A stretch of 64,000 nt of DNA, from NCBI GenBank assembly GCA_964536725.1, contig CAZHYJ010000001.1, positions 53,018-117,017 on the forward strand, in the 5' to 3' direction. The notes beneath the pieces were generated by a model, which saw nothing but the letters and a program-made list of their open reading frames with translations, made no database searches and had not been told where the DNA came from. Position 1 is the stretch's first letter, and each line of letters begins with the position of its first letter. The translations under genes were made by a program, and so were the position numbers. Origin of the DNA: an uncultured Gammaproteobacteria bacterium. Its GTDB lineage: Bacteria > Patescibacteriota > Patescibacteriia > Magasanikbacterales > GWA2-37-8. Positions 9,484 through 56,152 of this stretch are shown here, piece after piece.

Positions 9484-9510
9484 TATAATTTAATTTTAAT
9501 AATAAATAAA

Positions 9511-15749: not shown

Positions 15750-15750
15750 T

Positions 15751-16482: not shown

Positions 16483-16710
16483 TGATTAAAAGTTATCAAT
16501 ACAAAACTTCGTTTGAGTAGTGGTTATTTGGCACCATTTTTGCATGATGGATGATGGTGTTGCTTTAATGTAAAAAGGGTTGTATACTATAGATAGTGAA
16601 TATTCTTCAATTTTACATGATGTGTTATGTGGTGGGTTCTTTTTAGTGAGTAGGCTTTATAAATATTGACATTTTTTAGTAATTGTGTTTAAATGTTATA
16701 CTAAACTTAT

Positions 16711-17121: not shown

Positions 17122-17125
17122 GAAT

Positions 17126-17377: not shown

Positions 17378-17437
17378 AATAAAAATAAAATACACCTATT
17401 TTGTGAGTGTATTTTTTAATTTTGTATAAAAAATATA

Positions 17438-17590
17438 GTTCTAACATCCTCTACTAAGGAGCTCACTTTTCGTAAAACACCAAAACTCTGCTAAGTCTGG
17501 CAGAGTTTTTGGTTCTGATATTTGGCATAAGGTACATATATTTACTACCCCTTTGGAGAAAAAATGGCAAGAGTAGAACCGATTGAAAAA
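17438..17590 (+). repeat. Cassette-boundary repeat, copy 1 (long form): GTTCTAACATCCTCT..AAGGAGCTCA box, then hairpin AAAACTCTGC/GCAGAGTTTT with a T-run
   Basis: Near-identical over about 135 nt to the copy at 19598. It contains a tiny SD-ATG ORF (MARVEPIEK..). Confidence 0.6.
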
Positions 17591-17619
17591 GGATTATTTT
17601 TTTGGTATAGTTAATCATA

Positions 17620-21327: not shown

Positions 21328-22200
21328 ATGGCTAAAATATCTAATGTTTTCAATAAAATAAACGACTTACGTAAACGTTATTATTTAGCGGCTGTTGGCA
21401 GACAATCACTTTTGAAATTAATTAGCGAAACTGAAGTAGCTGAACAAGTTTACAATTCTAATGCTATAGAAAACAGCACTTTGTCCCTTGAAGAAACAGA
21501 AAAAATTCTACTGCAAATAGATCTGGACAGATATATTTCTGAGCGAGAAATTTTTGAAGCTAAAAATTTAGCACGTGTGGTCTCATATATAGATACCAAA
21601 GCTAAAGAAAAAGAACTCGATTTGGATGTTATTTTGATGTTACACAAAATGTTAATTAGTAATATTAGAGAAGACGTAGCGGGACGTTTTAGAAAAGAAA
21701 ATGAGTGGGTGCGAGTTGGTAATCATATAGCAGTTGATCCTAAAGAAATAATTGGTCGCTTAGAAAAAATGCTAGCTGAGTACAATGCCGAGAGCCAAGA
21801 AAATGTTATAAAAAGAATAGCACGTTTGCATTTAGCTTTTGAATACGTTCATCCTTTTGTCGATGGTAATGGTCGAATTGGTAGAGTGTTAAATAATTAT
21901 TTATTGATCAGAGAAGGGTTTGTGCCGATAAATATTAAATTTATTGATAGAAAAATGTATTATGAAGCATTCAAAGAGTTTGACACCAATGAAGCGACGG
22001 GTGTAATGGAGGAGATCGTCGGCCGTGCTTTGACCAATAGTTATCATAAGAGGTTGGCATATTTAGAGAGTAAAAATATTATTACCCTTAAAGAGTACGC
22101 ACAAAAAAATAAAATATCACATTCAAACGCTATCAACAAGGCTACTCGTCAAACTATTGAAGCTTTTTTGGAAAAGGGAATTTGGAAAATTGGAGAATAA
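21328..22200 (+). CDS. Fic/Doc-family protein (putative AMPylase)
   Basis: The canonical Fic motif HPFVDGNGRIGR is present. Confidence 0.8.
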   Translation: MAKISNVFNKINDLRKRYYLAAVGRQSLLKLISETEVAEQVYNSNAIENSTLSLEETEKILLQIDLDRYISEREIFEAKNLARVVSYIDTKAKEKELDLDVILMLHKMLISNIREDVAGRFRKENEWVRVGNHIAVDPKEIIGRLEKMLAEYNAESQENVIKRIARLHLAFEYVHPFVDGNGRIGRVLNNYLLIREGFVPINIKFIDRKMYYEAFKEFDTNEATGVMEEIVGRALTNSYHKRLAYLESKNIITLKEYAQKNKISHSNAINKATRQTIEAFLEKGIWKIGE

Positions 22201-22692: not shown

Positions 22693-24441
22693 TTATTTAA
22701 AAAGCGATATAATAAAACAGTTTTTGGTAACGTGGGTTGACAAAGTATGAAATGCGAGTATAATAGGGGATAGATTACATCGCGGGGTAGAGCAACCAGG
22801 CAGCTCGCAAGGCCCATAACCTTGAGGTTCCCGGTTCAAATCCGGGCCCCGCAACAATGTTGGACTCTGGTCATATAAAGTGGCCAGAGTCCTTTTTGTT
22901 AAAGGGTCTTCCGGAGGTTCGAAGTTTTTTTTAATCTCTTTTACTTCTTTGGACGCCTCTTCTAAAAGCACGAGCGGTTTTTGCGCTTGGAAAAGCACTT
23001 TTCCGTCTTTAAGTAATAGGTTCGAACCGAGACCCGACAGAATACTGCGTTTTGTAAATATATTATTTTCTTGGAACTTTTCTCTGGCAATTTGGGCGAA
23101 TGAGAAAATCTTTCCCGCCCTTTCTTTAGACTTATCCTCTTGGTTATTTTTACCAGATAATATATATTCCAAATTTTCTTTCTCTTTATTAATTTCAGCC
23201 TTTTTTTCTTTGGCTACCGTTTCAGATATCTCGCCGTTAATACGCATGTCCACTATAGTATCTAGTTTTTTGAGACAAGATGCTAGGGATTTTTCTAAGT
23301 TGGATACTATAATATTTTGATCGTTTTCTTTTTGTTGAGTTTCGTTTTTTAATTTTTCCAAAGCCCAAACACAGAAATCATTCGGTATCTCTATTCTATT
23401 CAGGATGTCCGTAATTTGCTCCTCGATTTCTTTTTCTTGGACATACCTCTGTGAGCAGTTGGGATTCTTTTGTTTGGTACAATGATAATATGTATATACA
23501 TGGGTGTTACCATTTTTTTGTTTCTTAACTCTTAATTCAGCGGTTATCATTGCTCCACATTCGCCACAACGTAATGGCCCCCGAAAAGCGAAATCGAATT
23601 TTTTCGGTCGCGGTTTATTTCGACCAGATATAATATCTTGTATTTGATCAAATTCTTCTTTGGTTATCATCGCGGGATGCTTTCCGTCATACCAGTTTCC
23701 ACTACCTTGGGGGTATTCATATCTACCATAATAGAACGGCAGAGTGAACATGCGGTAAAAAGTACTACGACCGATCGGTTTTCCGTTATCCATACGGAAT
23801 CCCCACTTATGAGTTATTACACGCCATAATTCTTGGACAGTGTACTGTCCAGTTAACATCTCTCGGAACGCTCTTTGGATGATGGGGAAGCGCTCTTTAT
23901 CTATCAAGATACACCTTGATCCGCCGGTGAGATTTGGAGTGTTTAAGTACCCTGTGGGGGCGTGTGAGGGATATATACCCATTTCTGCTTTAGTACGTAA
24001 TCCTCTGGCCGTATTGTGGCGTAGGTCGATAATGTATTGGTTAGCCATGCCTAACTCTACAAACATCATTAGGACGTTGTCGGTGGGGTAATAATCGCGA
24101 TCATAAGCCCGTATGTGTTGGATAATACCTTGTTGGAGCATCCAGTTGATAATACCGCCGTCAACAGGGTTTCTGGCCAAACGATCTAGTTTCCAACAGA
24201 CGATGCCGTTGGCCTCACCTTTTTTTATTCGTTCCACCATTTCATTAAACTCAGGGCGTGCACCAGGTTCTTTGGCCGAGTGGGCTTCGGTGAATGTCTT
24301 AACGACTTTAAGGCCGTCACGTCCAACGAGTTTTTTCATTTCACTAATTTGGGAATCGATAGAGAGGGCTTGTCGTTCTTCGCCCTCACTACTTTTTCTG
24401 CAGTAGAGAAAATATCTTAGTGGTTTTTTGTTGCTTCGCAT
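22693..24441 (-). CDS. Large serine recombinase, paralog of the one at 7895-9483
   Basis: ..YCRKSSEGEERQALSIDSQ.., ..IVCWKLDRLARNPVDGG.., and a Cys cluster (..CGECGAM...HCTKQKNPNC..). The ORF is open from 24483; the likely start is MRSNKKP at 24441. The C-terminal roughly 55 codons read through the tRNA-fMet antisense. Confidence 0.8.
   Translation of the reverse strand: MRSNKKPLRYFLYCRKSSEGEERQALSIDSQISEMKKLVGRDGLKVVKTFTEAHSAKEPGARPEFNEMVERIKKGEANGIVCWKLDRLARNPVDGGIINWMLQQGIIQHIRAYDRDYYPTDNVLMMFVELGMANQYIIDLRHNTARGLRTKAEMGIYPSHAPTGYLNTPNLTGGSRCILIDKERFPIIQRAFREMLTGQYTVQELWRVITHKWGFRMDNGKPIGRSTFYRMFTLPFYYGRYEYPQGSGNWYDGKHPAMITKEEFDQIQDIISGRNKPRPKKFDFAFRGPLRCGECGAMITAELRVKKQKNGNTHVYTYYHCTKQKNPNCSQRYVQEKEIEEQITDILNRIEIPNDFCVWALEKLKNETQQKENDQNIIVSNLEKSLASCLKKLDTIVDMRINGEISETVAKEKKAEINKEKENLEYILSGKNNQEDKSKERAGKIFSFAQIAREKFQENNIFTKRSILSGLGSNLLLKDGKVLFQAQKPLVLLEEASKEVKEIKKNFEPPEDPLTKRTLATLYDQSPTLLRGPDLNREPQGYGPCELPGCSTPRCNLSPIILAFHTLSTHVTKNCFIISLFK
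22781..22854 (+). tRNA. Initiator tRNA-fMet (anticodon CAT)
   Basis: Near-identical to E. coli tRNA-fMet: CGCGGGG acceptor with a C1-A72 mismatch; anticodon loop CCCATAA; T-arm CCCGG-TTCAAAT-CCGGG. It lies entirely antisense inside the 3' end of the recombinase-2 ORF. Confidence 0.8.
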
Positions 24442-24512
24442 ATAAGAATAATTAAAAATTCCATTAAACCACGGTAATAACATGCCTTACAATATGGCGT
24501 CAATAATTATAA

Positions 24513-26063: not shown

Positions 26064-26687
26064 TTAATAGTTATTGATTAAATTTTTTACTGCTTCCTTA
26101 AAGTTGTAATTATAGAGTAATTGAATAAGCTTTATACTATTCCCACCTTGTTGGCAACCAAAGCACTTAAAAGTATTTGTTTTGGTGAATACCGTGAAGG
26201 ATGGGGTTTTTTCTTTGTGTAGAGGACACAGGCACACTAGGTTCCTGCTCGATTTCCTAAATGGCCCAGGCAACAAAGCTTGTATTGGGACAGTGTTAGC
26301 TTGGTCGATTTGTTCTTGTGTTATTAAACCATCTCTTGGTTTTTTACCATGAAGAAAATTATGTTGACGATGGAGACGGAACAAATGCTTATCAATTTCA
26401 ACCAGTTCCGGAATAAATAAATATTTTACGCAGTCTCTGTTGAACTGTTTAGAAAAAGCGTTCATCGGGGACTCATTAATGCGAACGAGTATTTCATTAA
26501 TGTGCTTTGTTAATAATATTCGTTTTTCTTTCCACTCATTAATTTTTAATTGGATGACCGCTCGCGCTTCTGGAAACCAGCTGAACAACTCCGCGTCTGT
26601 GGGGTGGGGCAGCATCTCTCGTTCCTTTTCGATATCTAATGCGTTAAACAAGAATTCTATTTCTTCATTTGTTGGCAGATTATCCAT
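26064..26687 (-). CDS. DnaG-type CHC2 zinc-finger (primase zinc-binding domain) protein
   Basis: ..CLCPLHKEKTPSFTVFTKTNTFKCFGCQQGGNSIKL.. matches the zf-CHC2 pattern CPxHxEKTPSFxV...CFGCxxGG. Confidence 0.6.
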   Translation of the reverse strand: MDNLPTNEEIEFLFNALDIEKEREMLPHPTDAELFSWFPEARAVIQLKINEWKEKRILLTKHINEILVRINESPMNAFSKQFNRDCVKYLFIPELVEIDKHLFRLHRQHNFLHGKKPRDGLITQEQIDQANTVPIQALLPGPFRKSSRNLVCLCPLHKEKTPSFTVFTKTNTFKCFGCQQGGNSIKLIQLLYNYNFKEAVKNLINNY

Positions 26688-37705: not shown

Positions 37706-37754
37706 ATGTTATATTTTATATGTAATTAGATTATTAGTCAAAAAGTGTAGTCCT

Positions 37755-38234
37755 ATGAATGACTTAGAAAATCGCCAGGAAGGTCTATTTCGTAAAACTG
37801 GAGCCGAAGCGCGTGATGTAGGGGTGGAAGGACGCGAAAAACAGGCAGAAGAACAAGAAAAAAAGATGGCCGCCAAGGAGCGGGCCGAGTTGGTGTCAAA
37901 AGAGGTAAAAAGCACCAAACAACAGATGCAGAATATTTTGGCGAACATGCAGGCAGTGGTGAAAGCCGTGCAAGCTATCCGGGCACAGTTGGCAATTAGT
38001 GCCAACGGGTTAATTCCTTCAGTAGAACAGGATCAAAAGACGATGGAAAACTTGCAAAAGAAGTTGGCAGGCTTACGCGGCGAGCTTTCGGGCTTGCGCC
38101 AAGCACTGTTAATCGAAGAAATCGCTCGTTTGGAAGAAGAGGGGCGAATTAGCGACCATCAAACGTTGGAAATTGAAGCCGAAAAGAGTGTTGTAACGAT
38201 GTTAAAGTCGCTCGGAGTAGAAGAAGAGGGATAA
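37755..38234 (+). CDS. Coiled-coil hypothetical protein
   Basis: The ORF is open from 37518 antisense to ruvB; a sensible start is MNDLENRQ at 37755. It is Lys/Glu/Ala-rich with heptad-like repeats. Confidence 0.4.
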   Translation: MNDLENRQEGLFRKTGAEARDVGVEGREKQAEEQEKKMAAKERAELVSKEVKSTKQQMQNILANMQAVVKAVQAIRAQLAISANGLIPSVEQDQKTMENLQKKLAGLRGELSGLRQALLIEEIARLEEEGRISDHQTLEIEAEKSVVTMLKSLGVEEEG

Positions 38235-38381
38235 ATTTTGGCGAAGGTGTGCTTCGCAACGCCAAAACGACGGCACGCTTCGCATTGCCATAGCCCAAAG
38301 GGCGACGGCTTGTGGATAACTTTGACAAGGGGGAACAGCCGCCTTGTTTTTTTCTCTCAAAATACACCAAAAAACGACTTG

Positions 38382-38411
38382 TTGGTAGTGGTTTGACGGG
38401 TGTGATATAAT
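38382..38411 (+). promoter_or_regulatory. Promoter for nrdJ (-35 TTGGTA, 18-nt spacer, extended -10 TGaTATAAT)
   Basis: The hexamers are seen directly. A leader of about 120 nt follows. Confidence 0.45.
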
Positions 38412-38541
38412 GTATGAGCTTTACCTGATTTACAACATGTTGTGGTCAAAAAAGGTTTTAAGCACAAGTTGTAGTTTTTGTTCAGGTGTGCAGATAATTT
38501 AATTAATAAAAAATAATTTTTTACAAATTCATCTTACTCAT

Positions 38542-41500
38542 ATGCATACTGCCACGGCCACGCGAACTTTCAAAGTCGATAATGATTTTAAATATTCTCC
38601 GGAAAATGGTTTGCGTTTCAAGCGTCACTTCACGCAAGATGGAGTAAGTCCGTATGATTTGTTTCAGTATGAGTTACGCGCTTCAGTTATTCGTGAAACG
38701 AGTGGTCGGGTAATTTTTGAAATGAACGATGTTGAAGTTCCAACTGTTTGGTCGCAAGTGGCGACTGATATTTTGGCACAAAAATATTTTCGTAAAGCCG
38801 GTGTCCCGCAATATGATGCCGATGGTCATGCTAAGCTTAATACTGACGGGACTCCCGTGCTTGGTCCTGAGAAAAGTGTTAAACAAGTTGCCCATCGGCT
38901 AGCTGGTACTTGGCGTTATTGGGGAGAGAAGTTTGGCTATTTCGCTTCCGTTGGTGACGCACAAGTTTTTTATGATGAACTAGTTTACACTTTGATCAAA
39001 CAGATGACTGCACCGAATTCTCCGCAGTGGTTTAATACTGGCTTATATTGGGCGTATGGAATTAACGGTCCTTCGCAAGGTCATCATTACGTTGATCCAA
39101 CTACCGGAGTGTTGATGGCGGCTACTGATTCATATTCTCACCCTCAGCCGCATGCTTGTGGTCGTTATGATACAAAATTATTTACCGATCGCGGCATAAT
39201 GAATTTGGGAGATGTGGTGGAAAACAATATGGCGGGTATAAAAGTATTCGATGGAGAAAATTATGTTGTCGTGAAGGCGGTAAAGAACAATGGTGTCAAG
39301 AAAATTTATCGTGCCAATTTAAAAAATGGAAATTATTTGGATTTTACTGACGATCATTTGGTGTGGTCAGCGGACAAACGTCTAAAAGATGGTGGCCAAT
39401 ATGATTGGAGTGAGTTGTCCACAATCTTAGGAAAAAAAGTGCAACAATTCTCTTTGCCTGCAGAGGTAAGTAATGTGGCTAAAGAAAATGATTTAGATTT
39501 GTTCCAAGCAGAGTTGGCAGGTTGGGTTTTGGGTGATGGGTATTATGGAAAATATGGTAAAAACAAGAAGAGTACGGTATTTGGGGTGATAACAATCAAC
39601 GATGATGAGTTTAATAGCGTAACCAATTTATTCAACAACGTTTTCGGGCGTTATACAGTAAGGATAAAACGTTCAGTGGATGACTTGTATCGGACAATTT
39701 GTTGTGATTCTAAGCAAGTAGACGAATATGTGCAGAATTTTGAATTGGAAAAAAATGTCTATACAGCGTCTGTGCCAGAAAAGATTTGGCAGGGCAGTAA
39801 CAGGGTGAAGGCAGTCTTCTTGCGTGGTCTGTTTCAGGCTGACGGTAGTGTACGTTTGAGAAAAGATGATGATCGAAATAGCGGAGATGTGGTTTTGACT
39901 ACTGTGTCAGAAGAGTTGGCACATGGAGCACAAATGTTGTTGTTACAATTAGGAATATATTCTCGAATCGTACCTTGTCATGATAGTCGCGAAGATCGAC
40001 ACGAATGTTATCAGGTGGTTATTGCTTTTTATTCAGAAAGAAAGAGATACGAGGAGTTAATTGGTTTTGTTTCGCAAGATAAACAGGAGAAATTGAAATT
40101 GTTAAACAGCATAGTGGAAGGGAAAAACAAAGAAAATTTATCAGAGGAGACAGTCGTGTCAGTTGACTATATCGGTGAGGAAGAGGTTTATGATATTCAG
40201 ACGGAATCCAGCAAATTTTTGGCCAATGGCGTGGTGGTACACAACTGTTTCATTCAATCCGTGCGCGATGATTTGGTGAACGAGGGTGGTATTATGGATC
40301 TGTGGATTCGTGAGGCACGATTGTTTAAATATGGATCAGGTACGGGCACTAACTTTTCTAATTTGCGTGGCAAGGGAGAAAAATTATCAGGTGGTGGAAC
40401 GACTTCGGGTTTAATGAGCTGGTTGAAGATTGGTGATCGTGCAGCTGGTGCGATTAAATCTGGCGGCACCACTCGTCGAGCAGCCAAGATGGTAATTTTA
40501 AATATTGATCATCCGGATATCGAGGAGTTTATCAACTGGAAAGTTTTGGAAGAGAAAAAAGTGGCGGCTTTGATTGCTGCTGGTTATGATTCCTCCTATG
40601 AAAGTGAGGCCTATCAAACTGTTTCGGGGCAGAACTCTAATAATTCAGTGCGTGTTAATCAAGCATTTTTGGAAGCAGTGGAAAGTGGTATTGATTGGAA
40701 TTTGACTTGGCGCACTGATGGTAAGGTTTGTAAAACGTTGCCGGCGCGTAATCTTTGGGATCAAATCGCACACGCTGCTTGGGCTTGTGCTGATCCTGGT
40801 ATTCAATTTGATTCGACCATTAACGAGTGGCACACCTGTCCGCAGTCGGGCACGATTAACGGCTCCAATCCTTGTAGTGAGTACATGTTCTTAGATGACA
40901 CAGCCTGCAATTTAGCGTCAATAAACTTGGCTCATCTTTATGATTCAGAAACTGCGACCTTTGATATTTCTGGATTTACTTATGTCACTCGTCTGTGGAC
41001 GGTAGTTTTGGAGATTAGTGTTTTGATGGCGCAATATCCAAGCGCTGAAATTGCCCAAGGTAGCTATGACTATCGCACGCTTGGTTTAGGTTATGCCAAC
41101 ATTGGTTCGCTGTTGATGACAGCAGGCGTGCCATATGATTCGCCAACCGCCTTGGCTTTTGCTGGCAGTGTGACAGCTTTAATGACTGCTGAATCCTATG
41201 CCACCTCAGCTGAAATGGCGCGACTACATGGTCCATTTCCTAAATACGAAGAGAATCGCGCCGATATGCTGCGTGTGATTCGCAACCATCGCCGTGCTGC
41301 CTTTGGTGTTTCAGATGATGAGTATGAAGGGTTGTCTGTAATGCCGTTATCTATTGATCCACAATATGCTCCAGCTTATCTTTTGGCGGCAGCGCGTGAA
41401 AGTTGGAACAAAGCTTTAGAGATGGGGGAGAAATATGGTTTTAGAAATGCCCAAACTACCTTGCTTGCTCCAACTGGTACAATTGGTTTGTTGATGGACT

Positions 41501-43077
41501 GTGCAACTACCGGTGTAGAACCAGATTTTTCTTTAGTGAAGTTTAAAAAATTGGCCGGTGGCGGATATTTTAAGATTGTAAATGAATCGGTACCGATGGC
41601 GTTAAAAACTTTAGGGTATAACGATACACAGATTAGTGGTGTAATTGATTATCTTAAGGGTCGTGCGACTTTGCACAACTGTCCAGAGATCAACTTTGAG
41701 TCTTTAAAAGCAAAAGGTTTTACTGAAGAAGATATTAACAAAGTAGAAAAAGGTTTAGCGGGGGTTTTTGAACTACCATTTACTTTTAATGTTTGGACTT
41801 TGGGTGAGGAGTGTTTGAAACGTTTAGGGTTTACCAGCGAACAATACAATGATCAGAATTTTGATCTACTGACCGCGCTTGGATTTACACGCGAGCAAAT
41901 TAATATTGCTAACGAATTTGTTTGTGGTGCTATGACAATTGAAGGTGCGCCACACTTACGTCAGGAGCACTATGCTGTATTTGATACGGCTAATAAAAAC
42001 GGAAGAAAAGGTGAGCGTTATATCCACTACCTCGGTCATATCCGAATGATGGCGGCAGTACAACCGTTTTTATCGGGCGCAATTTCCAAAACCATCAACA
42101 TGCCAAACGAGGCAACTGAAGAAGATATTAAGATTGCTTACAACGCTTCGTGGAAGTTGGCTTTGAAAGCGATCGCGATTTATCGTGATGGTTGTAAATT
42201 GTCTCAGCCATTGTCGAGTAAGAGTGTTGATAAAAAAGAAAAGAAAGAAGAAGTTGTGTCAGTAGAAAAAGAAATTATGTCAACGCCAGTTGCCAGTGCT
42301 ATGCCAGCACATTCTGACAGCCAGATGCAGGTTAGTTATGCGCACGATGGATCGGAAAATGGTAAACAGATATATATACATGGCGAGCAGCGTAAGATGC
42401 CTTACAAACGCAGTGGCTTAACAATTAAAGCAAAAGTGGGTGGGCAAAAATTATTCTTGCGCACGGGTGAATATCCAGATGGGAAATTGGGTGAAGTATT
42501 CATCGATATGTACAAGGAGGGGGCGTCGTTCAGAAGTCTGCTTAATTTGTTTGCTATTTCCATTTCTACTGGCTTGCAATACGGCGTGCCATTGGAGGAA
42601 TATGTCGACAAGTTTATCTTTACTCGTTTTGAGCCGAGCGGCATGACGGATCATCCAAATATTAAGCTTTCAACTTCGATCGTTGATTTCATTTTCCGGG
42701 TACTTGGTATGGAATATTTGGGACGGACCGATTTTGTTCAGGTTAAACCAGCGGGCATTCAAAAAAATCGTGTGGAGCAATTGGCAAAATTAATGGCGGA
42801 AGCGGCTGGGCAAAAAACAATGGAATTGCCGGAGATAAAAGAAGACACTGAAGACGAAGTGGAAAAAGAAAAAATAATTTTGAAAGATCCAGAGGCAACG
42901 AAGGACCAGATGGAATTGTTTAAAAAAGAGGTCGCTGCAGCAACAGCTAGTGTTGATCAGCAGTTGGCAGGAATGATGGGTGATGCACCGCCATGTTCAA
43001 CTTGTGGACATACTACAGTGCGTAGCGGAACCTGTTATAAATGTTTGAATTGTGGTGGAACCACGGGTTGTAGCTAA
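38542..43077 (+). CDS. nrdJ: Class II (adenosylcobalamin-dependent) ribonucleotide reductase NrdJ interrupted by an intein
   Basis: RNR motifs are ..GSNPCSEYMFLDD..CNLASINL.. and a C-terminal Cys4 finger (CSTCGHT...CYKCLNCGG). An in-frame 363-aa insertion sits at the conserved ..PHA|C..HN|CFIQS site. Confidence 0.85.
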   Translation: MHTATATRTFKVDNDFKYSPENGLRFKRHFTQDGVSPYDLFQYELRASVIRETSGRVIFEMNDVEVPTVWSQVATDILAQKYFRKAGVPQYDADGHAKLNTDGTPVLGPEKSVKQVAHRLAGTWRYWGEKFGYFASVGDAQVFYDELVYTLIKQMTAPNSPQWFNTGLYWAYGINGPSQGHHYVDPTTGVLMAATDSYSHPQPHACGRYDTKLFTDRGIMNLGDVVENNMAGIKVFDGENYVVVKAVKNNGVKKIYRANLKNGNYLDFTDDHLVWSADKRLKDGGQYDWSELSTILGKKVQQFSLPAEVSNVAKENDLDLFQAELAGWVLGDGYYGKYGKNKKSTVFGVITINDDEFNSVTNLFNNVFGRYTVRIKRSVDDLYRTICCDSKQVDEYVQNFELEKNVYTASVPEKIWQGSNRVKAVFLRGLFQADGSVRLRKDDDRNSGDVVLTTVSEELAHGAQMLLLQLGIYSRIVPCHDSREDRHECYQVVIAFYSERKRYEELIGFVSQDKQEKLKLLNSIVEGKNKENLSEETVVSVDYIGEEEVYDIQTESSKFLANGVVVHNCFIQSVRDDLVNEGGIMDLWIREARLFKYGSGTGTNFSNLRGKGEKLSGGGTTSGLMSWLKIGDRAAGAIKSGGTTRRAAKMVILNIDHPDIEEFINWKVLEEKKVAALIAAGYDSSYESEAYQTVSGQNSNNSVRVNQAFLEAVESGIDWNLTWRTDGKVCKTLPARNLWDQIAHAAWACADPGIQFDSTINEWHTCPQSGTINGSNPCSEYMFLDDTACNLASINLAHLYDSETATFDISGFTYVTRLWTVVLEISVLMAQYPSAEIAQGSYDYRTLGLGYANIGSLLMTAGVPYDSPTALAFAGSVTALMTAESYATSAEMARLHGPFPKYEENRADMLRVIRNHRRAAFGVSDDEYEGLSVMPLSIDPQYAPAYLLAAARESWNKALEMGEKYGFRNAQTTLLAPTGTIGLLMDCATTGVEPDFSLVKFKKLAGGGYFKIVNESVPMALKTLGYNDTQISGVIDYLKGRATLHNCPEINFESLKAKGFTEEDINKVEKGLAGVFELPFTFNVWTLGEECLKRLGFTSEQYNDQNFDLLTALGFTREQINIANEFVCGAMTIEGAPHLRQEHYAVFDTANKNGRKGERYIHYLGHIRMMAAVQPFLSGAISKTINMPNEATEEDIKIAYNASWKLALKAIAIYRDGCKLSQPLSSKSVDKKEKKEEVVSVEKEIMSTPVASAMPAHSDSQMQVSYAHDGSENGKQIYIHGEQRKMPYKRSGLTIKAKVGGQKLFLRTGEYPDGKLGEVFIDMYKEGASFRSLLNLFAISISTGLQYGVPLEEYVDKFIFTRFEPSGMTDHPNIKLSTSIVDFIFRVLGMEYLGRTDFVQVKPAGIQKNRVEQLAKLMAEAAGQKTMELPEIKEDTEDEVEKEKIILKDPEATKDQMELFKKEVAAATASVDQQLAGMMGDAPPCSTCGHTTVRSGTCYKCLNCGGTTGCS
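39157..40245 (+). other. Intein with a LAGLIDADG homing-endonuclease domain inside nrdJ
   Basis: It starts with Cys (CGRYDTKLFTDRG..) and ends ..VVVHN before extein CFIQS. The motif ..LAGWVLGDGYYGK.. is present. Splicing would restore the conserved ACF active-site region. Confidence 0.7.
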
Positions 43078-43085
43078 AATATATA

Positions 43086-43118
43086 ATGCCACTCTAATCA
43101 GGAGTGGCATTTGATGTG
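43086..43118 (+). terminator. Hairpin ATGCCACTC-TAATCAG-GAGTGGCAT with a T-containing tail after nrdJ
   Basis: Perfect 9-bp stem. Confidence 0.45.
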
Positions 43119-43168
43119 TACTTTAAATATCAAATGTTCAGGTTCTAATTCTAAGTTATTTATTTTCT

Positions 43169-44611
43169 ATGGAAAATTCTATTCCTTGGGCATTAACATA
43201 CGATGATGTGCTGATTGTTCCCAAACGATCCTCTTTTGTTTCGCGTAGTGAAGCAAGCACACGTACGCGGTTAACAAAAAAGATTAGTATTAATGTGCCG
43301 ATTGTGAGTGCGAATATGGATACGGTGACTGAGGCAGAAATGGCAATCGCCTTGGCGCGAATTGGTGGCTTTGGATTTTTGCATCGCTTCATGAGTATTG
43401 AGGAAAATGTGGAACAGGTGAAACGAGTAAAACGAGCACAGAATTTTATCGTGGAAGATCCATATACTATCGCACCCAATTGTACAGTAAGAGAGGCAAG
43501 AAAGTATGCCTCCGAGGTTGGTGTCACCGGTCTGTTGGTAGCCAACGGTGATCATCGGTTGCGCGGTATGCTTACTCAGCGGTCCTTTATGTTTGTTGAT
43601 GGCGACGAAGATGTTTTGTTGGTGCAAGATATTATGACACCAAAAGAAAAAATGGTGATCGCTAGTTCGCAAACAACTTTTGAAGAAGCCAAGAAAATAT
43701 TTGCTGATTGTAAAATAGACAAATTGCCTTTAATAAATGACGATGGTGTTATCACTGGTTTGATTACTCTTTCTGATATTAAACATGTCATGCAATATCC
43801 TTTGGCCAACCTAGATAGTGATGGTCAGTTGTTGGTCGGTGGTTCAGTAGGTGTACACGGTGATTTTATCGAGCGCGCAACTGCCCTGGTCAATGCGGGG
43901 GCGGATGCATTGGTGATAGACATTGCACATGGACATTCGGATTTAATGATTCGGGCGATTGAGCAGATTCGTGCTGCAGTCGGTGATGCGCAAATAGTAG
44001 CTGGGAATATTGCAACGGCAACAGCTGCACGTGATTTGTGTGAAGCGGGAGTAGATGCAGTGAAAGTGGGTGTGGGGCCAGGAACGACTTGTATTACGCG
44101 TCTGGTAACTGGTTGTGGTATGCCACAACTAACTGCGGTAATGGAGGTGGCGCGGGTGGCGAAGCGCTATGGTGTACCAGTGATTGCAGACGGAGGAGTA
44201 CAGCGTTCGGGTGATATTGTGAAAGCGATTGGAGCGGGGGCGGATACAATAATGTCGGGTGGGATGTTGGCTGGTACAGAAGAGTCGCCAGGTGTATTAA
44301 TGAAGAGGGGAGATAAGAAATTTAAATTGTGTCGTGGGAGTGCAAGCTTTTCTGTTAGCCACAAGCGTAAATCAATTAATTTGGAAAAGAAAGATTTGAG
44401 TGATGTGGTGCCAGAAGGAGTGGAATCGCTTGTACCATACAAGGGGCCAGTGATTGATCTTGTTTCACAATGGGTAGGGGGATTAAAGTCAGGGATGAGT
44501 TATACCAATTCACACACGATCGCTGAGTTGCAAGAGAATGTTTCGTTTGTGCGGTTAACTGCTGCTGGTCAACATGAGAGTGGGGCGCATGATATTGATG
44601 TGATGGGGTGA
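43169..44611 (+). CDS. guaB: IMP dehydrogenase (with CBS pair)
   Basis: ..[10 protein letters not shown].., a CBS region, then ..[26 protein letters not shown].. with the catalytic Cys loop. Confidence 0.85.
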
Positions 44612-44632
44612 AGTTGTATATTATAAAATCAT

Positions 44633-45175
44633 ATGACCAAAATATATACTAAAACCGGCGACACTGGCGAAACGTCACTCTTAGGTGGTGAGCGTGTCAC
44701 CAAAGATTGTATTACCTTGCAGGTGGTGGGGGAGATTGATGAATTAAATTCTACGATTGGCGAAGTGGTGGCGCATTTGTTTGGTGCTTTGCCAACGGAA
44801 TTTTTGGTTAAAATTCAACACGACTTATTTAAAGTCGGAGCGGAGGTCGTTTCGTTGCAAGCTAAATTGGGAGATGGTTTGGTTAAGATCGGTGAAGAAG
44901 AAATAAAAGAGTTGGAAGAAAATATTGATAACTATTGGAAAGATCTACCGGAATTAAAAAATTTCATTTTACCTGGTGGGTGTTTGTCAGGCGCACATTT
45001 GCATCACGCCCGCACAATTTGTCGACGCGTGGAGCGAGAGTTGGTAACATTTGGTAAAGAACAAAACGTACGACCAGAATTGTATAAATATTTAAATCGT
45101 TTGAGCGATTATCTGTTTACTGCAGCGCGCTGGGTGAATTTTCAAGAGGGTGTAGAAGAAGTGAAAATAATTTAA
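44633..45175 (+). CDS. ATP:cob(I)alamin adenosyltransferase, PduO-type
   Basis: MTKIYTKTGDTGETSLLGGERVTKD...VGEIDELNSTIG matches the PduO/MMAB N-terminus. Confidence 0.75.
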   Translation: MTKIYTKTGDTGETSLLGGERVTKDCITLQVVGEIDELNSTIGEVVAHLFGALPTEFLVKIQHDLFKVGAEVVSLQAKLGDGLVKIGEEEIKELEENIDNYWKDLPELKNFILPGGCLSGAHLHHARTICRRVERELVTFGKEQNVRPELYKYLNRLSDYLFTAARWVNFQEGVEEVKII

Positions 45176-45440
45176 TTGTAATTTTTAGTTATCAACAGGC
45201 AGCTTCACTTGACGGTGAGCGTGAATCAGATATAATGTTTGAGTGCTTTTCTTTAAAGAGCTGCGGTAGAGTTGATGTTTCAACCGAATCGGATTTTAAA
45301 AACAATCTCTCTCTCTTTTTCCTTACATTAAGTTGTCTGGATTAAGCGTTTTCATAATTTGATTCGTTAGCTAAAACATGCAATTCTTCTCGCAGCTCCT
45401 TGGAGGAAAGTATTTTTGTTTAAAAAGAATAATAGGATCA

Positions 45441-45546
45441 GGATTTACACGTTTGATAATTTTTTCGCTTTCCTCGGCCACGAGGCCTCAGGGATGAAGT
45501 CTGTGGACTTCATAACCCGCTCAAAAAATATCAAACGTGTAAATCC
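45441..45546. mobile_element. MITE-like palindromic element with perfect 18-bp terminal inverted repeats (GGATTTACACGTTTGATA); second copy at 56158-56254
   Basis: The TIRs are seen directly. Two internal hairpins differ between the copies by compensatory base changes. Confidence 0.5.
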
Positions 45547-45553
45547 TGGGGTA

Positions 45554-45582
45554 TTGAATTTTTTTAATAGACGTGATAATAT
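45554..45582 (+). promoter_or_regulatory. Promoter for tRNA-Leu (TTGAAT-17-TAATAT)
   Basis: The hexamers are seen directly; the tRNA begins 13 nt downstream. Confidence 0.5.
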
Positions 45583-45594
45583 TTTCTTGGTTTT

Positions 45595-45679
45595 GCCCAG
45601 GTGGTGAAATTGGTAGACACAAGAGACTTAAAATCTCTCGCCGCAAGGCTTGCGGGTTCGATTCCCGCCCTGGGCACCA
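45595..45679 (+). tRNA. tRNA-Leu (anticodon TAA), long variable arm, CCA encoded
   Basis: Acceptor GCCCAGG/CCTGGGC; anticodon stem AGAGA/TCTCT; loop CTTAAAA; variable arm CGCCGCAAGGCTTGCGG; T-arm CGGG-TTCGATT-CCCG. Confidence 0.85.
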
Positions 45680-45681
45680 GT

Positions 45682-45710
45682 AGAACGCTTTTTTAAAGGC
45701 GTTCTTTTGT
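45682..45710 (+). terminator. Terminator after tRNA-Leu (AGAACGC-loop-GCGTTCT with a T-run)
   Basis: Seen directly. Confidence 0.5.
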
Positions 45711-46048
45711 TGTGAGAAAGGGGAGGAGTTATAGGCAAATTTTTGTTTTCTTGACTTATCCACCGCTAAAATTTGACTTTTCTTGGCAAATAATATAAAA
45801 TCTATGTGCTTCTTGATTTAGGAGAAAAAATAGCTGTTTTTCTGCTTAATCAAGCGAAAAATGCGGCTTCAACCTATTCCAACGGTTGGGCTGCGTGCAA
45901 GGACATTAAGACAAAAATCATGTTAACCTTGCGTGTTTTGGCTAAATTATAAGGAAATTTTATCTAAAAGCCTCTTTTTTTGGCCGTTTTTTTGCGTTAT
46001 TACCTCTTTTTTTAAAAATAAATAAAAAATTAAATAATTTAATTTTCT

Positions 46049-49000
46049 ATGTCTCTCTTTAAACGCCTCCCGCTCAAGACTTTGGAAAGAAAATTCTTTA
46101 CCACCGCCCTTGATGCCATGCCTTTGCCCGACTTGATCGAGGTTCAAAAGGATTCGTATAATTGGTTTTTAAAATTTGGTATCAAAGAATTGTTTGAGGA
46201 GATTTCTCCGATCACAGACTTTTCTGGTCGGGATTTGGAATTATATTTGGAGGACTATTATCTAGACGAACCACGTTTTGATGAAGTGGTTTGTCGTCAG
46301 CGCAATGTTACCTTCGAAGCGCCACTGCGCATTACTGCGCGCATGGTGAACAAGCGTACCAACCAAACAAAATCACAAGAGATTTATTTGGGTGATGTGC
46401 CAGTAATGACTGATCGTGGTACTTTTATTGTGAATGGTATTGAACGTGTAGTTGTTTCTCAGTTGATCCGTTCCGCTGGTGTGTTCTTCACTGCTGAAAA
46501 TGTTCGTGGTCGCAAATATTATGGTGCCAAAATTATTCCGAATCGTGGCGCTTGGATTGAAGTAGAAACTGATGCTAACAATGCTCTTTGGATCAAAGTT
46601 GATCGCAAACGTAAGGTGGCTGCTACATCGTTGCTTCGTGCTTTTGGTTATGAGGATGATGAAAAAATGAAAGAACTTTTTAAAGATGTAAACAATCATC
46701 CGAACATTGATTTCTTGGATGCCACTATCAAAAAAGATTTAGCAAAAAATCAGAGCGAAGGTTTTATCGAAGTATATAAAAGAATTCGTCCAGGTGATTT
46801 GGCCACGGCCGACAATGCTAAGAGTCTGATCGAGGCGATGTTTTTCAATTTTGAAAGATATGATTTGGGCCGCGTGGGTGTTTACAAATTTAATAGTAAA
46901 TTTGATATCGCTTGTGATCCGTCCGCTTACGATCAAAAAGAAAATCGTGTTTTATCCGCGGATAAATTATTAGCAGTTTTGAAAGAAGTAATTCGTTTGA
47001 ATGTTACCCAAGAAGAGCCTGATGATGTTGATCATTTGGGCAATCGTCGTGTCCGTGCAGTGGGTGAATTAGTACAGAATCGTTTCCGCGTTGGTTTAGC
47101 GCGTATGGAGCGTGTCGCTAAAGATCGCATGAGTACCTACGACATGGAACAGGTGACACCAAATCGTTTGATCAACTCTCGTCCCGTGACCAGTGCCATC
47201 CGTGAATTCTTTATGAGTTCTCAGATGTCCCAGTTCATGGATCAGCATAATCCACTGTCTGAGTTGGAACACAAACGTCGTTTGTCCGCTATGGGTCCAG
47301 GTGGTTTGTCACGTGATCGTGCCAGTTTTGAAGTTCGCGATGTGCATACCACTCACTATGGCCGCATCTGTCCAGTAGCTACTCCAGAAGGACCGAACAT
47401 TGGTTTGGTCAACCACTTATCCAGTTTTGCTCGGATCAATGAATTTGGTTTTATCGAAACCCCTTATCGTAAAATTTTACGTGAGGTGGAAAACAAACCA
47501 GAATTATTGGAAGGCGAAATTTTGCGCGGTGAAATTGAAGGGGTAAAAGATGGCACCAAAATTACTCGTGAAGTAGCGGCTAAATTAGCCAAAGCAAAAT
47601 TAAAAAAGATTCCAGTACGTTCACGCGTGACTAATGAAATTGTTTATTTATCTGCATTTAAAGAAGAAAAAGTTTTGACCGCTTCCGCCAAAACGCGCAC
47701 TGATGAAAATGGATATTTCATGGATGAAATGACCCCAGCGCGTGTACACGGTAACGCTGGTACCGCTCCAACTGCCGATTTAGATTATTTGGATGTTTCT
47801 TCCAGTCAAATTGTCAGTGTGGCAACCGCTTGTATTCCTTTCATGGAACACGACGATGGTCAGCGTGCTTTGATGGGTACAAACATGCAACGTCAGGCTG
47901 TGCCTTGTATTCGTCCTGAACCACCACTAGTTGGTACGGGTGTAGAAAAAGCGGCCGCTAATTATTCCGGCCACATGGTTATCGCCGAAGAAGATGGCGA
48001 GATTGTAGAAGCTGATGGTGGTCACGTCGTTTTGAAAGGTAAAAAAGGTGATTTGCATACTTATCATTTAAATAAATTTGTTCGTTCGAATGCTGCTACT
48101 TGTATCAATCAGCATTTGCAAACCAAAGTAGGCGACAAAGTTAAAAAAGGACAATACCTCTCTGATGGTCCAAGTATTCATGATGGTGAATTGGCATTGG
48201 GTCAGAATGTATTAGTGGCTTACATGGTGTGGGATGGTTTCAACTACGAAGATGCGGTAATTTTTTCTGAGAACTTGGTGCAGAGTGATCGCTATACCTC
48301 TATCCATATTGAGGACTATACAATTGATGTACGCGAGACCAAGCTTGGCCCAGAGTTAGTTACATCTGACATCCCGAATGTTAGTGAAGAAAAATTAAAG
48401 AATTTGGATTCTGAAGGTATCGTTCGTATCGGCGCTGAGGTAAAATCCGGTGATATTTTGGTGGGTAAAATTACCCCAAAGGGTGAAACTGAATTGTCTG
48501 CTGAGGAAAGATTGTTGCGTGCTATCTTTGGTGAGAAGGCGCGCGATGTTCGTGACTCTTCATTATATCTTGAACATGGTGAACACGGAAAAGTTATTGG
48601 TGTACAGGTATTTTCCGAAGCTGCTGGCGACAAATTGGAACCAGGGGTAATCAAACAAGTGCAGATCAAAGTGGCCGACATGCGCAAGATTCAGGTAGGT
48701 GACAAAATGGCCGGTCGTCATGGTAACAAAGGTGTGATCTCACGCGTGGTGCCAATGGCCGATATGCCTTTCCTTGAAGACGGTACGCCAATTGACATCA
48801 TTCTTTCACCGCTTGGTGTTATCTCACGTATGAACTTGGGTCAGATTTTGGAAACCCACTTAGGTTTGGCAGCGAATGCCTTGGGTTACAAGATTGCCAC
48901 TCCAGTTTTAAATGGTTTAACTGAAGATCAAATTCGTGATGAATTAATTAAAGCCGGTTTGCCAGTAGATGGCCAAGTACGTTTGTTTGATGGTCGCACC

Positions 49001-54310: not shown

Positions 54311-56152
54311 ATGCGTATTAAACAAACTATCTTTTTGGTATTAAGCGGATGCTTGGCTCTAGGGGCCGGATTGCTTGGTTTTTGGTTTGGTCCGGAGGTT
54401 GGGAAATATACCCAAAATTTGCCGGAGCCAGCTTTAGCGGAAACGACTGGCCCAAACTCCGCCAACGTAATTTCCACCGTCTTTGCTTCGGAAGAAATGT
54501 ACAAAGACTTTTTTGCTTACCCGCGCTCGATTGTTGCTCCAACAAATACAGTAATGTCATTGGTTCTGCCCCATCATTTGGTGGCTGGTAGTTATGTTGC
54601 CGGTGTTTTTGAAGGGGTAAAAAATTCTCGTCCACCGGTGGTAGTGGTGATTGGTCCAAACCATCAACAAGCCGGTGGTAGTTTTGTTTTATCTACCAAA
54701 TTAGGGTGGCAGACAATGGGCGGTGTGCTTTCATCCAATTCTCAAGTTATCGACTCATTAGTGGCGAGTAATTTAGTTGGTATTGATGATGCGGTTTTAA
54801 CCAACGAACACAGCGTGGGTGCTTTGGCGCCGTTTATCAAAAACACCTGGCCTAGTACAAAAATCGTACCGCTGGTAATTAAAAATATTAAAAATGATGA
54901 ATTAGCGGATGGACTAGCTTCAAAGTTGTATGAAGTTTTACCGGTTGGCAGTTTGGTAATTGCCAGTGTAGATTTTTCCCACTATCTACCCAAAACAGTC
55001 GCGAATTTTCATGATGATTTGTCGATCAATGTTTTGAGTACTGGTGATATGGGGCGAATTAAAAAAATGGAGATTGATAGTCAAAACAGTATTCGTGCTT
55101 TGTTAAAATACAACAGTATTGTCGGGGCACAAAGATTTACTTTGGCATATCACACCAACAGCGCGGATATTATGAATAGTGACCTGGCCGAAACCACCTC
55201 GCATGTGTTGGGATATTTTACTCGTGAGACTCGTGCGGAACAGCCAATGATTTCTTTGCAGTTGTTTGGTGATATGATGATAGAGCGAAGTGTGGAAAGG
55301 AATTTTGGTAAGAGTGGTTTGGATTATGTTTTTAAAAATTTAAAGGGTCAAGAAAACAGATTCTTTTATGGCGTGGATTTGTTGTTGGCCAACTTAGAAG
55401 GTCCATTTGCCCCCGCGCGTGTTCCGACCACCAAGTCAATCGCTTTTCGTTTTAATCCGGATTTAGCACCACAGTTAAAGCGTTACGGTTTTACCGGTTT
55501 TTCTTTGTCCAACAACCATGGGTTAGATATGGGTTTCAAAAATTACGATTTTACGAAGAAAATTTTAACCGATAATGGTTTGACATATTTTGGTCATCAG
55601 ACTAAAGAGGGAGCGGAATACACTTGGGTTGCCGGTGAAAAAGAAGGGTTACCAGAAAAGGTGGCGTTTATTGGTATCAACAATACTGACCATCCGCTAA
55701 ATATGGCCAAGGTAAAAAGTGCAATTGATGCGGCCAAAAAAGAAGCGCGGTATGTTATCGTCTACGCGCATTGGGGCAATGAATATCAGCGCATTTCTCA
55801 CCAGACCCAAAGAGATCTAGGTCATTGGTTGATTGATAACGGGGTGACGGCAGTGGTTGGTATGCATCCGCATGTTATTCAAGAGATGGAAATTTACAAA
55901 GGCCAGCCAATTTTTTACTCTTTAGGCAACTTTGTTTTTGATCAATATTTTTCCAAAGATACTCAAGAAGGCGTGAGCGTTGGGTTGAATTTGCAAGACG
56001 GGCAGGTGAAGGATGTATATGTTTTTCCTTTTTACGGCGTTAAGTCACAGGACAGTTTAATGAGTGGAAAACGTCAAACGGATTTCTTTACCTGGTGGAA
56101 TAAAAACAGCCGACTGGGTGAGAAGACTTTTGAAAATAATAAATTAAAATAA
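54311..56152 (+). CDS. Fusion protein: N-terminal TM, Memo-like (AmmeMemoRadiSam system protein B-like) domain, then CapA/PGA_cap metallophosphatase-like domain
   Basis: Memo-like region ..LVLPHHLVAGSYVAGVFEG..VVVIGPNHQ... CapA-like region ..SLSNNHGLDMGF.. and ..YAHWGNEYQRISHQTQRDLGHWLIDNGVTAVVGMHPHVIQ..SLGNFVFDQ... Confidence 0.55.
   Translation: MRIKQTIFLVLSGCLALGAGLLGFWFGPEVGKYTQNLPEPALAETTGPNSANVISTVFASEEMYKDFFAYPRSIVAPTNTVMSLVLPHHLVAGSYVAGVFEGVKNSRPPVVVVIGPNHQQAGGSFVLSTKLGWQTMGGVLSSNSQVIDSLVASNLVGIDDAVLTNEHSVGALAPFIKNTWPSTKIVPLVIKNIKNDELADGLASKLYEVLPVGSLVIASVDFSHYLPKTVANFHDDLSINVLSTGDMGRIKKMEIDSQNSIRALLKYNSIVGAQRFTLAYHTNSADIMNSDLAETTSHVLGYFTRETRAEQPMISLQLFGDMMIERSVERNFGKSGLDYVFKNLKGQENRFFYGVDLLLANLEGPFAPARVPTTKSIAFRFNPDLAPQLKRYGFTGFSLSNNHGLDMGFKNYDFTKKILTDNGLTYFGHQTKEGAEYTWVAGEKEGLPEKVAFIGINNTDHPLNMAKVKSAIDAAKKEARYVIVYAHWGNEYQRISHQTQRDLGHWLIDNGVTAVVGMHPHVIQEMEIYKGQPIFYSLGNFVFDQYFSKDTQEGVSVGLNLQDGQVKDVYVFPFYGVKSQDSLMSGKRQTDFFTWWNKNSRLGEKTFENNKLK

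Follow-up and report, generated by a model that had tools for sequence, protein, structure and literature searches.

A putative class 1 LAGLIDADG intein at the active-site redox cysteine of a B12-dependent ribonucleotide reductase, and its linkage to a PduO-type adenosyltransferase gene in a Candidatus Magasanikbacteria genome

How could a working ribonucleotide reductase (RNR) be obtained from a gene that is interrupted in the middle of its own active site, and which neighbouring genes would supply it with cofactor and substrate? These questions are raised by a 64-kb stretch of low-GC DNA (guanine plus cytosine about 40%) from a Patescibacteria genome, which is called the window here. Three co-oriented genes on its forward strand encode a class II RNR with an in-frame insertion (nrdJ, 38542-43077), a protein of the IMP dehydrogenase (IMPDH)/GMP reductase (GMPR) family (43169-44611) and a PduO-type ATP:cob(I)alamin adenosyltransferase (pduO, 44633-45175). 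The explanation that best accounts for these features jointly, and which we consider very probable, is a nucleotide-supply gene cluster in a genome of Candidatus Magasanikbacteria (Patescibacteria/Candidate Phyla Radiation, CPR) that comprises an intein-bearing NrdJ and a PduO-type enzyme. The NrdJ protein of the window is identical to an entry in NCBI and in Logan and is encoded on a contig of 201 kb, and its nearest named relatives are from Candidatus Magasanikbacteria.

The open reading frame (ORF) at 38542-43077 encodes a NrdJ precursor of 1511 amino acids (aa). It matches the Pfam domains Ribonuc_red_2_N (PF08471; E = 8.5e-40), Ribonuc_red_lgC (PF02867; E = 1.3e-126) and TSCPD, and it scores above the cut-offs of PRK06556, NF005122 and TIGR02504 (adenosylcobalamin-dependent ribonucleoside-diphosphate reductase; NrdJ_Z, 568.8 against 399.95), while falling slightly under that of PRK07562 (1645.6 against 1737). 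The best solved match is 7b9p, a B12-dependent RNR of 925 aa (1088 bits), which aligns in three pieces (query 26-206, 567-681 and 675-1226). These matches uphold the NrdJ identity given in a preliminary description of this DNA. The N-extein (residues 1-205; 38542-39156, +) ends in ...HPQPHA, carries Ribonuc_red_2_N at residues 55-154 and aligns with residues 3-199 of 7b9p; the C-extein (residues 569-1511; 40246-43077, +) carries Ribonuc_red_lgC at 568-1051 and TSCPD at 1298-1389, and query 567-681 aligns with residues 197-311 of 7b9p. The protein has both the ten-stranded RNR barrel and the class II-specific N-terminal domain. The C-extein begins with Cys569 at the +1 position, SNPCSE at residues 774-780 (N776, C778, E780) and C789 are intact in it, and the catalytic Asn/Cys/Glu (NPCxE) is present together with a redox cysteine pair that would include Cys569 after splicing. 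Alignment offsets place Cys569 at position 134 of T. maritima NrdJ and at position 218 of human and yeast R1; these equivalences to named residues draw on such offsets and on general knowledge, and the residue is presumably one of the two RNR cysteines that are oxidized in each turnover. The C-terminal tail holds six cysteines (CSTC-x9-CYKCLNC-x5-C), and a six-cysteine, zinc-binding C-terminal domain that relays electrons has been reported for most class II RNRs (PMC5704485). By its family membership and the established chemistry of RNRs, the mature product would be a 1148-aa adenosylcobalamin (AdoCbl)-dependent ribonucleoside-diphosphate reductase with the thiyl radical on Cys778 of SNPCSE and a Cys569/Cys789 redox pair, and its zinc-finger tail would re-reduce the active site. 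Elsewhere in the window a 315-aa pyridine nucleotide-disulphide oxidoreductase of thioredoxin-reductase size (62122-63069, -) is a candidate electron source for NrdJ.

The insertion lies between HPQPHA and CFIQSV and spans 363 aa (C206..N568; 39157-40245, +). Chain coordinates of 7b9p run on across this point (...199, 197...), and residues 207-566 of the window protein have no counterpart in it. In an alignment of 27 sequences, seven intein-less proteins read HPQPHA-CFIQSV free of gaps and the 20 others carry an insertion at the same point, which starts with C(G/A/V)R... and ends in ...VHN. At the DNA level the insertion is an exact block of 1089 nt relative to the empty allele of the closest locus that lacks it, L002 (GCA_964535515.1; loci used for comparison bear L numbers), in which the gene order is the same. 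The empty site of L002 reads CCGCATGCG|TGTTTCATT, the window flanks, once spliced together, are identical to it at 75 of 90 nt, and the window extein is 89% identical to this allele. The preliminary description had read the insertion as a LAGLIDADG intein running from C206 to N568 at the ACF motif of the active site, had proposed alignment with intein-less NrdJ as one check, and had named as grounds against it a counterpart in NrdJ homologues or the lack of intein blocks A, B, F and G. The alignments bear out these boundaries to the residue, neither the homologues nor 7b9p contain a counterpart, the active-site motif is contiguous (HPQPHA|CFIQSV) in the intein-less homologues, and all four blocks are present.

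In intein numbering the motifs comprise Cys1, T64-D-D-H67 (block B), two LAGLIDADG motifs (LAGWVLGDG with D127 and LRGLFQADG with D229), VYDIQTE with D346 (block F) and H362-N363 (block G), with Cys569 immediately after it. Across an alignment of 30 intein relatives T64 and H67 never vary, and D127, D229, D346, H362 and N363 are conserved in at least 90%; Cys1 is found in 45 of 45 family members and Cys+1 in all 27 aligned sequences. The LAGLIDADG type is supported by the two motifs, by Pfam LAGLIDADG_3 (62.9 bits) and by the predicted fold. An AlphaFold2 model of the intein, built on the alignment of its relatives, reached a predicted local distance difference test (pLDDT) of 91.8 and a predicted template modelling (pTM) score of 0.92, and Foldseek matched it over its full length to endonuclease-containing inteins of the Hint fold (E = 8e-20 to 1e-11), with TliVMA (7qsu; E = 8e-20, TM 0.70), PI-PfuI (1dq3) and PI-SceI at the top. 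The central domain of the model matches free LAGLIDADG enzymes such as I-DmoI (TM 0.7), and both of its LAGLIDADG helices end in a catalytic Asp (D127, D229). With an in-frame position at a conserved site, a block A Cys, the TxxH of block B, blocks F and G and the modelled Hint fold, the insertion reads as a canonical class 1 homing intein of the textbook LAGLIDADG-containing kind, and by alignment its +1 Cys (Cys569) is the active-site redox cysteine.

Could the insertion instead be a lineage-specific domain of NrdJ, or a dead intein remnant, which would either persist in the mature NrdJ or make the gene non-functional? We regard this as extremely improbable. It would fit the score for Pfam Intein_splicing, which barely clears its cut-off (36.2 against 35.8 bits) and also counts against our own interpretation, and the lack of conservation of the four internal cysteines of the intein across the 45 family members; moreover, splicing of the window intein is a prediction from sequence and model. 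Against it, Cys1, TxxH, the block F Asp, His-Asn and Cys+1 are all present and conserved in the family, and the insertion splits the active-site cysteine from its neighbour, where the sequence runs on unbroken in all intein-less homologues and in 7b9p. The flanking NrdJ is 87-92% identical to intact relatives and contains neither frameshift nor stop codon, and the model has the bipartite splicing domain and the LAGLIDADG domain seen in active inteins. A role of the internal cysteines in redox sensing was considered separately and ruled out, as none of the four is conserved.

On the reading of the insertion as a splicing-competent intein, the 1511-aa precursor would be inactive because the intein parts Ala205 from the active-site redox Cys569. 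The motifs and the fold suggest the standard route, in which an N-S acyl shift at Ala205-Cys206 would be followed by trans-thioesterification to Cys569, by cyclization of Asn568 assisted by His567, and by an S-N shift that would join ...HPQPHA to CFIQSV.... The predicted junction peptide of the spliced NrdJ is HPQPHACFIQSVR. Splicing would thereby recreate the active site, so that the +1 nucleophile becomes a catalytic residue.

Is the element also still mobile? Among the top 120 NrdJ homologues, 115 could be scored for an insertion at this site, and 51 of them carry one while 64 do not. The hosts include Magasanikbacteria and other Patescibacteria, Puia and other Bacteroidota, Kapabacteria and one Micrarchaeota archaeon. 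Two of the same-site insertions are mini-inteins (142 and 146 aa) from which the endonuclease domain has been lost, the expected decay stage of the homing cycle. A search with the intein by itself returned 64 relatives, 55 of them fragments with NrdJ domains and 9 with LAGLIDADG or intein domains only, and the family therefore looks tied to nrdJ. A scan of one genome per GTDB species gave intein-less loci only, contiguous matches ranking first, and is no measure of intein frequency by taxon. The conserved endonuclease residues favour an element that is still homing. The excised intein, as a two-motif LAGLIDADG endonuclease, would cut an intein-less nrdJ across the ...CCGCATGC|TGTTTCATTCAA... 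junction and would then copy itself into the cut allele by gene conversion, and homing of this sort would explain the patchy distribution of the intein. The intein-bearing and intein-less alleles of close relatives define a natural homing site. Genes with two inteins were also seen, with one insertion at the window's site (A|C...HN|CF) and another at the thiyl-radical cysteine (SNP|C...HN|C(S/G)E; proteins P0040, P0047 and P0114; homologues of about 1900 aa), and one such NrdJ lies on a predicted viral contig (L091, 5503-10395; IMG/VR UViG_3300017963_000254).

The alternative, an intein that splices and has an inactive endonuclease, would be kept by vertical descent only, its imprecise loss destroying an essential gene. 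We think this unlikely, with evidence on both sides. In its favour, intein and extein identities are correlated (r = 0.66; 990 pairs), and the intein is better conserved than the extein in only 3 of the 990 pairs, never by 5 points; the sample gives no direct sign of recent horizontal homing. The same-site mini-inteins show that endonuclease loss happens in this family, and the intein is compositionally at home by its GC3 of 0.375, identical to that of the host gene, the overall GC content being 0.387 against 0.434. Counting against our own account, the nearest other intein is only 67% identical and sits in a host about 80% identical, no near-identical donor being present in the databases. A decaying endonuclease would not be expected to keep its catalytic Asp residues D127 and D229 and the motif residues around them, which at least 90% of the relatives retain. 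It would also have to accommodate the fact that the closest hosts lack the intein (the four closest exteins, 87-92% identical, are all empty) and more distant ones have it, a pattern that needs recent gain or several precise losses, as well as the presence of same-site inteins on viral contigs. Since the intein tracks extein identity, recent invasion and ancestral presence with repeated precise loss fit equally well. Recent homing across phyla was dropped as an explanation, no signal of it being found in the 990 identity pairs, and foreign composition proved uninformative given the shared GC3. Three predicted viral contigs (IMG/VR) carry a same-site intein that is related, but at 32-33% identity these are no donors, and in tblastn against GenBank phages every match fell below 30% identity, among them the SPbeta bnrdE intein and a polymerase intein of a Bacillus phage.

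The supply of AdoCbl to such an enzyme brings in the third gene. Its product (180 aa; 44633-45175, +) starts 21 nt past the stop codon of the IMPDH/GMPR-family gene and matches Cob_adeno_trans (PF01923) at E = 1.9e-55 over model positions 1-171 of 171 and TIGR00636 (PduO_Nterm) at 185.1 bits against a cut-off of 108.45. Matches to solved PduO-type enzymes from bacteria, archaea and human range from E = 4e-40 to 1e-28; L. reuteri PduO (3ci1) and human MMAB (2idx) are among them. The N-terminus reads TKTGDTGETS, of which residues 6-14 (TKTGDTGET) fit T-K/R-x-G-D-x-G-x-T/S, which we take, from L. reuteri PduO, to be the ATP-binding motif. The preliminary description had placed a PduO-type adenosyltransferase two genes downstream of nrdJ, had called NrdJ the only RNR visible in the window and had noted that no cobalamin biosynthesis gene was visible there. 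All three statements stand: the gene is what and where it was said to be, and a Pfam sweep of the window (43 ORFs of at least 150 aa; RuvB was scanned by NCBIfam only and ORFs below 150 aa were inspected by eye only) gave no second RNR domain, no NrdB-like or NrdG-like gene and no domain of cobalamin biosynthesis or transport (cob, btu).

Does PduO serve NrdJ, as had also been suggested? Linkage was scored by tblastn with pduO in one genome per GTDB species (80 NrdJ loci, plus five further ones), within at most 10 kb of flanking DNA. Of the 16 Magasanikbacteria-type loci, 14 have pduO downstream of nrdJ (15/17 with the window), at a distance of up to about 5 kb in the window, L001-L012, L014 and L037. 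NrdJ identity in these loci is 64% or higher. The remaining two are L013, whose downstream flank is just 3 kb long, and L056, where the sequence stops at nrdJ. None of the 67 loci of other phyla (Bacteroidota, Peribacteria, Doudnabacteria, Planctomycetota, Ignavibacteria, Actinomycetota, Chloroflexi and others) has pduO within 10 kb of nrdJ. The linkage supports a functional coupling in which PduO would adenosylate cob(I)alamin with ATP and so make or repair the AdoCbl of NrdJ; the counts strengthen the earlier suggestion and stop short of proof. The steady pairing is genomic evidence that DNA synthesis in Magasanikbacteria may depend on an external corrinoid, and it bears on the host dependence of CPR bacteria.

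It is quite improbable, in our judgement, that pduO stands near nrdJ merely through chance gene order in the neighbourhood of ruvB (upstream, on the opposite strand) and of tRNA-Leu, rpoB and rpoC (downstream), and that it serves another AdoCbl-dependent enzyme or none. The whole ruvB-nrdJ-pduO-rpoB block is syntenic, and the linkage may reflect general conservation of gene order; the genes between the pair also vary, and a hairpin stands 3' of nrdJ. The pair nevertheless persists as the genes between and around it change, down to 64% identity in NrdJ and 38% in PduO. Only 5-10 bp separate the two genes in L005 (10 bp) and L012, and neither the window nor the flanks examined show another AdoCbl-dependent enzyme. 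As to what occupies the slot between them, L002 has a gene for an 818-aa protein that lacks a Pfam match (15300-17756), and L003 (15494-16525) and L004 have a HATPase_c_2/DUF4325 protein in place of the IMPDH/GMPR-family gene.

Further points weigh against our account of the cluster. The hairpin (AATGCCACTC-taatcag-GAGTGGCATT; 43085-43111) lies just past the nrdJ stop codon, was flagged on the minus strand by the terminator scan and has a weak T tail on the plus strand, which leaves co-transcription of nrdJ with the two downstream genes a prediction. Neither a cobalamin transporter nor a cob(II)alamin reductase is visible in the window. As to a reductant for the six-cysteine tail, thioredoxin failed in this role for the single enzyme with a cysteine-rich tail that has been studied (PMC5704485). 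Splicing, endonuclease activity, cofactor use and adenosylation are all predictions from sequence.

The middle gene (43169-44611, +; 480 aa) had been labelled guaB. Pfam gives PF00478 (IMPDH) at E = 1e-132 and two CBS domains, and with the barrel, the Cys loop and the CBS pair all recognizable the assignment to the IMPDH/GMPR family appears secure. This part of the label stood, while the identity as guaB is doubtful. Overall identity does not discriminate between the two activities (49% to T. brucei GMP reductase, TbGMPR, and 47% to T. maritima IMPDH), nor does the score of the best solved match, TbGMPR (6lk4), at 448.1 bits, stand far from that of T. maritima IMPDH at 447.1 bits. We read the diagnostic columns in an alignment that combined the window protein and its 120 closest homologues with TbGMPR, T. 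maritima IMPDH and the E. coli proteins GuaB and GuaC. The flap Arg-Tyr dyad, which activates water for hydrolysis of the enzyme-XMP intermediate (E-XMP*) in IMPDH and is absent from GMPRs (PMC2525682), reads DRY in T. maritima IMPDH and E. coli GuaB, whereas the window protein has Asn-Leu at these columns and the dyad is missing from all 120 homologues. In the window protein the IMP-binding residues Tyr411 and Gly415 (human IMPDH2 numbering) are replaced by Cys and Ala; Ala is shared by 119/120 homologues and Cys by 96/120, 17/120 having Tyr. Substitutions at both positions have been proposed as the reason why TbGMPR is without IMPDH activity (PMC4701174). Like TbGMPR, the window protein has CITRLV as its Cys loop, and the catalytic Cys, Thr and the Glu of PEG are kept, a combination that has the sequence features of a CBS-containing GMP reductase of the T. 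brucei type. Because the dyad is absent and the diagnostic TbGMPR substitutions are present, GMP reductase is the likelier assignment, and the product would probably, though by no means firmly, convert GMP to IMP rather than oxidize IMP.

A true IMPDH (GuaB) that hydrolyses enzyme-XMP via the ancestral Thr/Glu route alone is a possible if doubtful alternative to this. A second, slower route of water activation through Thr321/Glu431 does exist in IMPDH (PMC2525682), and the catalytic Cys, the Thr two residues on, the PEG Glu and the CBS pair are all in place. TIGR01302 (IMP_dehydrog) was passed, if narrowly (485.4 against 481.5), all named homologues are labelled IMP dehydrogenase by their sources, and of the columns that set two agreeing IMPDHs apart from TbGMPR, the window protein sides with IMPDH at 35 and with TbGMPR at 29. 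Such an enzyme would have to manage in a clade where the dyad is uniformly missing, although in IMPDH the R418A replacement slows hydrolysis by a factor of about 1000 and the double mutant shows no activity (PMC2525682), and the Ala at Gly415, the Cys at Tyr411, the CITRLV loop and the best solved match all point to TbGMPR instead. Its genomic surroundings also speak against it: guaA is adjacent in none of three contexts, which leaves the presence of guaA elsewhere in the genome unsettled, and in one genome the gene lies near a phosphoribosyltransferase and a purine nucleoside phosphorylase. The window, its duplicate contig L001 and L002 are the only loci with this gene between nrdJ and pduO; in other genomes it lies elsewhere, and it is not a conserved member of the cluster. 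Should the GMP reductase assignment hold, the clade-wide annotation as IMP dehydrogenase in Magasanikbacteria probably hides a CBS-type GMP reductase, and purine reconstructions would shift from GMP synthesis to GMP-to-IMP salvage.

How might the cluster be controlled? A promoter-like site (TTGGTA-18 nt-(TG)TATAAT; 38382-38411, +) lies about 130 nt upstream of nrdJ, with 10/12 consensus matches and an extended -10 TG; it is a consensus match only, and promoter-like sites in the region show no excess over shuffles. Between it and the nrdJ start lies a perfect palindrome, ACAACATGTTGT (38432-38443), the single exact copy in the window, which lies 110 nt before nrdJ. L002 has ACAACATATTGT (9891-9902) at the matching position, this sequence also occurs upstream of nrdJ in L010 (1295-1306), and variants are found in L013 and L014. 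The palindrome resembles what we take to be the NrdR box and may be a candidate NrdR-box-like operator; no nrdR gene is present in the window. Control of the cluster by a riboswitch or other RNA was rejected, as Rfam returned only tRNA-Leu around it: at E-values up to 1 no cobalamin riboswitch or other element was found in 38000-46100, and at gathering thresholds no riboswitch was found in the window. Two features flank the cluster. Between ruvB and nrdJ lies an ORF of about 160 aa (37752-38234, +) that is rich in charged residues and has no Pfam or NCBIfam match, its position and size being kept in L002 (157 aa) and L003 (160 aa). Downstream of pduO, the segment 45209-45594 contains the best promoter-like site of the region (TTGACG-16 nt-TATAAT, 11/12 matches) and, after it, about 360 nt with no convincing ORF or Rfam match up to tRNA-Leu (45595-45679); this stretch may represent a long leader of the tRNA or a small RNA that lacks annotation.

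One further idea is speculative and, to our mind, highly improbable, namely that the intein serves as a post-translational gate on what is possibly the sole RNR, as part of salvage control across the cluster. Oxidation could trap the precursor through a disulfide between Cys1 and Cys+1 (Cys206-Cys569) and so halt deoxynucleoside triphosphate synthesis, a block that would last until the epibiont was again reduced and attached to its host. The order nrdJ-(GMP reductase)-pduO would then form a salvage module controlled by splicing, cofactor adenosylation and purine balance.

The rest of the window holds several features apart from the cluster. The region 7681-30851 looks like one or two integrated mobile elements, with GC down to 0.33-0.37 and most ORFs lacking a Pfam match. 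Two genes for large serine recombinases (7895-9541 and 22693-24483, both -) each lie against tRNA genes, two for tRNA-Gly at 7681-7906 and one for tRNA-Met at 22781-22855, and the region also encodes a DnaG-type zinc-finger protein (26064-26687), a Fic protein (21328-22200) and a radical SAM protein (19893-21068). A LOOT RNA (RF03000; 11972-12115, +) was found inside the putative element at 63.6 bits against a gathering threshold of 46.4; the match overlaps the start of an ORF (12013-12903) that has no Pfam match. A 613-aa protein encoded at 54311-56152 (+) joins a Memo-like domain to a PGA_cap (capsule synthesis) domain, and three small proteins with T4SS_pilin domains are encoded at 49-549, 990-1460 and 2995-4071 (+), which are also found in Patescibacteria loci such as L005.

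Set beside known systems, most parts of the cluster have close counterparts. The NrdJ of the window shares HACFIQSV, SNPCSEYMFLDDTACNLAS and the later barrel elements with 7b9p, to which every extein segment aligns, the difference being that the window gene is interrupted by an intein and 7b9p has none. With long class II RNRs of the PRK07562/PRK06556 type it has in common a six-cysteine C-terminal domain like that reported for most class II RNRs (PMC5704485). PduO-type enzymes such as 3ci1, 2idx and B. subtilis YvqK (1rty) are, like the window protein, single-domain proteins of about 180 aa that match it over the full length (E = 1e-28 to 4e-40); the window gene differs in standing outside any pdu/eut microcompartment or cob operon, behind nrdJ in a reduced genome. 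TbGMPR (6lk4, 6jig) and the middle protein share the CBS pair, the lack of the Arg-Tyr dyad, Ala at Gly415, a residue other than Tyr at Tyr411 and the CITRLV loop (PMC4701174); at the Tyr411 position TbGMPR has Ile and the window Cys, the host of the window gene is bacterial, and its activity is predicted from sequence. The actinobacterial GuaB1-type GMPR is a different type, the window protein scoring 305 against the NF052358 cut-off of 675.

Among bacterial intein hosts RNR ranks second, with a count of 211 inteins (PMC4760082), and the most frequent insertion site in it is the thiyl-radical cysteine, NP|C (PMC2677866). The window intein occupies a distinct site at the redox cysteine, A|CF. 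PI-PfuI from the Pyrococcus furiosus RNR (1dq3; RIR1-type) is its best solved sequence match (E = 2.6e-5) and likewise combines a bipartite splicing domain with a two-motif LAGLIDADG domain in an RNR catalytic subunit; RIR1-type inteins also insert at an active-site residue and have Cys1, TxxH and His-Asn/Cys+1. The host protein sets the window intein apart from these, being a long (about 1150 aa) bacterial NrdJ from Patescibacteria, and sequence identity to any solved intein is only 13-18%. We found no description of inteins in Patescibacteria in the searchable literature. The intein alone adds little, beyond its occurrence in a phylum where inteins are hardly discussed, and as a compact 363-aa Cys1/Cys+1 element it could be tried as a splicing tool. 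Its closest counterparts are the same-site NrdJ inteins of Magasanikbacteria, Puia and other Chitinophagaceae, Kapabacteria, Micrarchaeota and IMG/VR contigs, which are inserted at the identical point (...PQPHA|C...VHN|CF...), are 361-407 aa long and match it in the blocks CGRYDTK..., VYDIQTE... and ANGVVVHN. The window copy is at most 67% identical to any of them, and it is neither a mini-intein (142-146 aa) nor accompanied by a second intein at SNP|CSE, as are some of these relatives. It is an ordinary intein, an element of a known kind in a common host protein, and its insertion site is also filled in dozens of public sequences.

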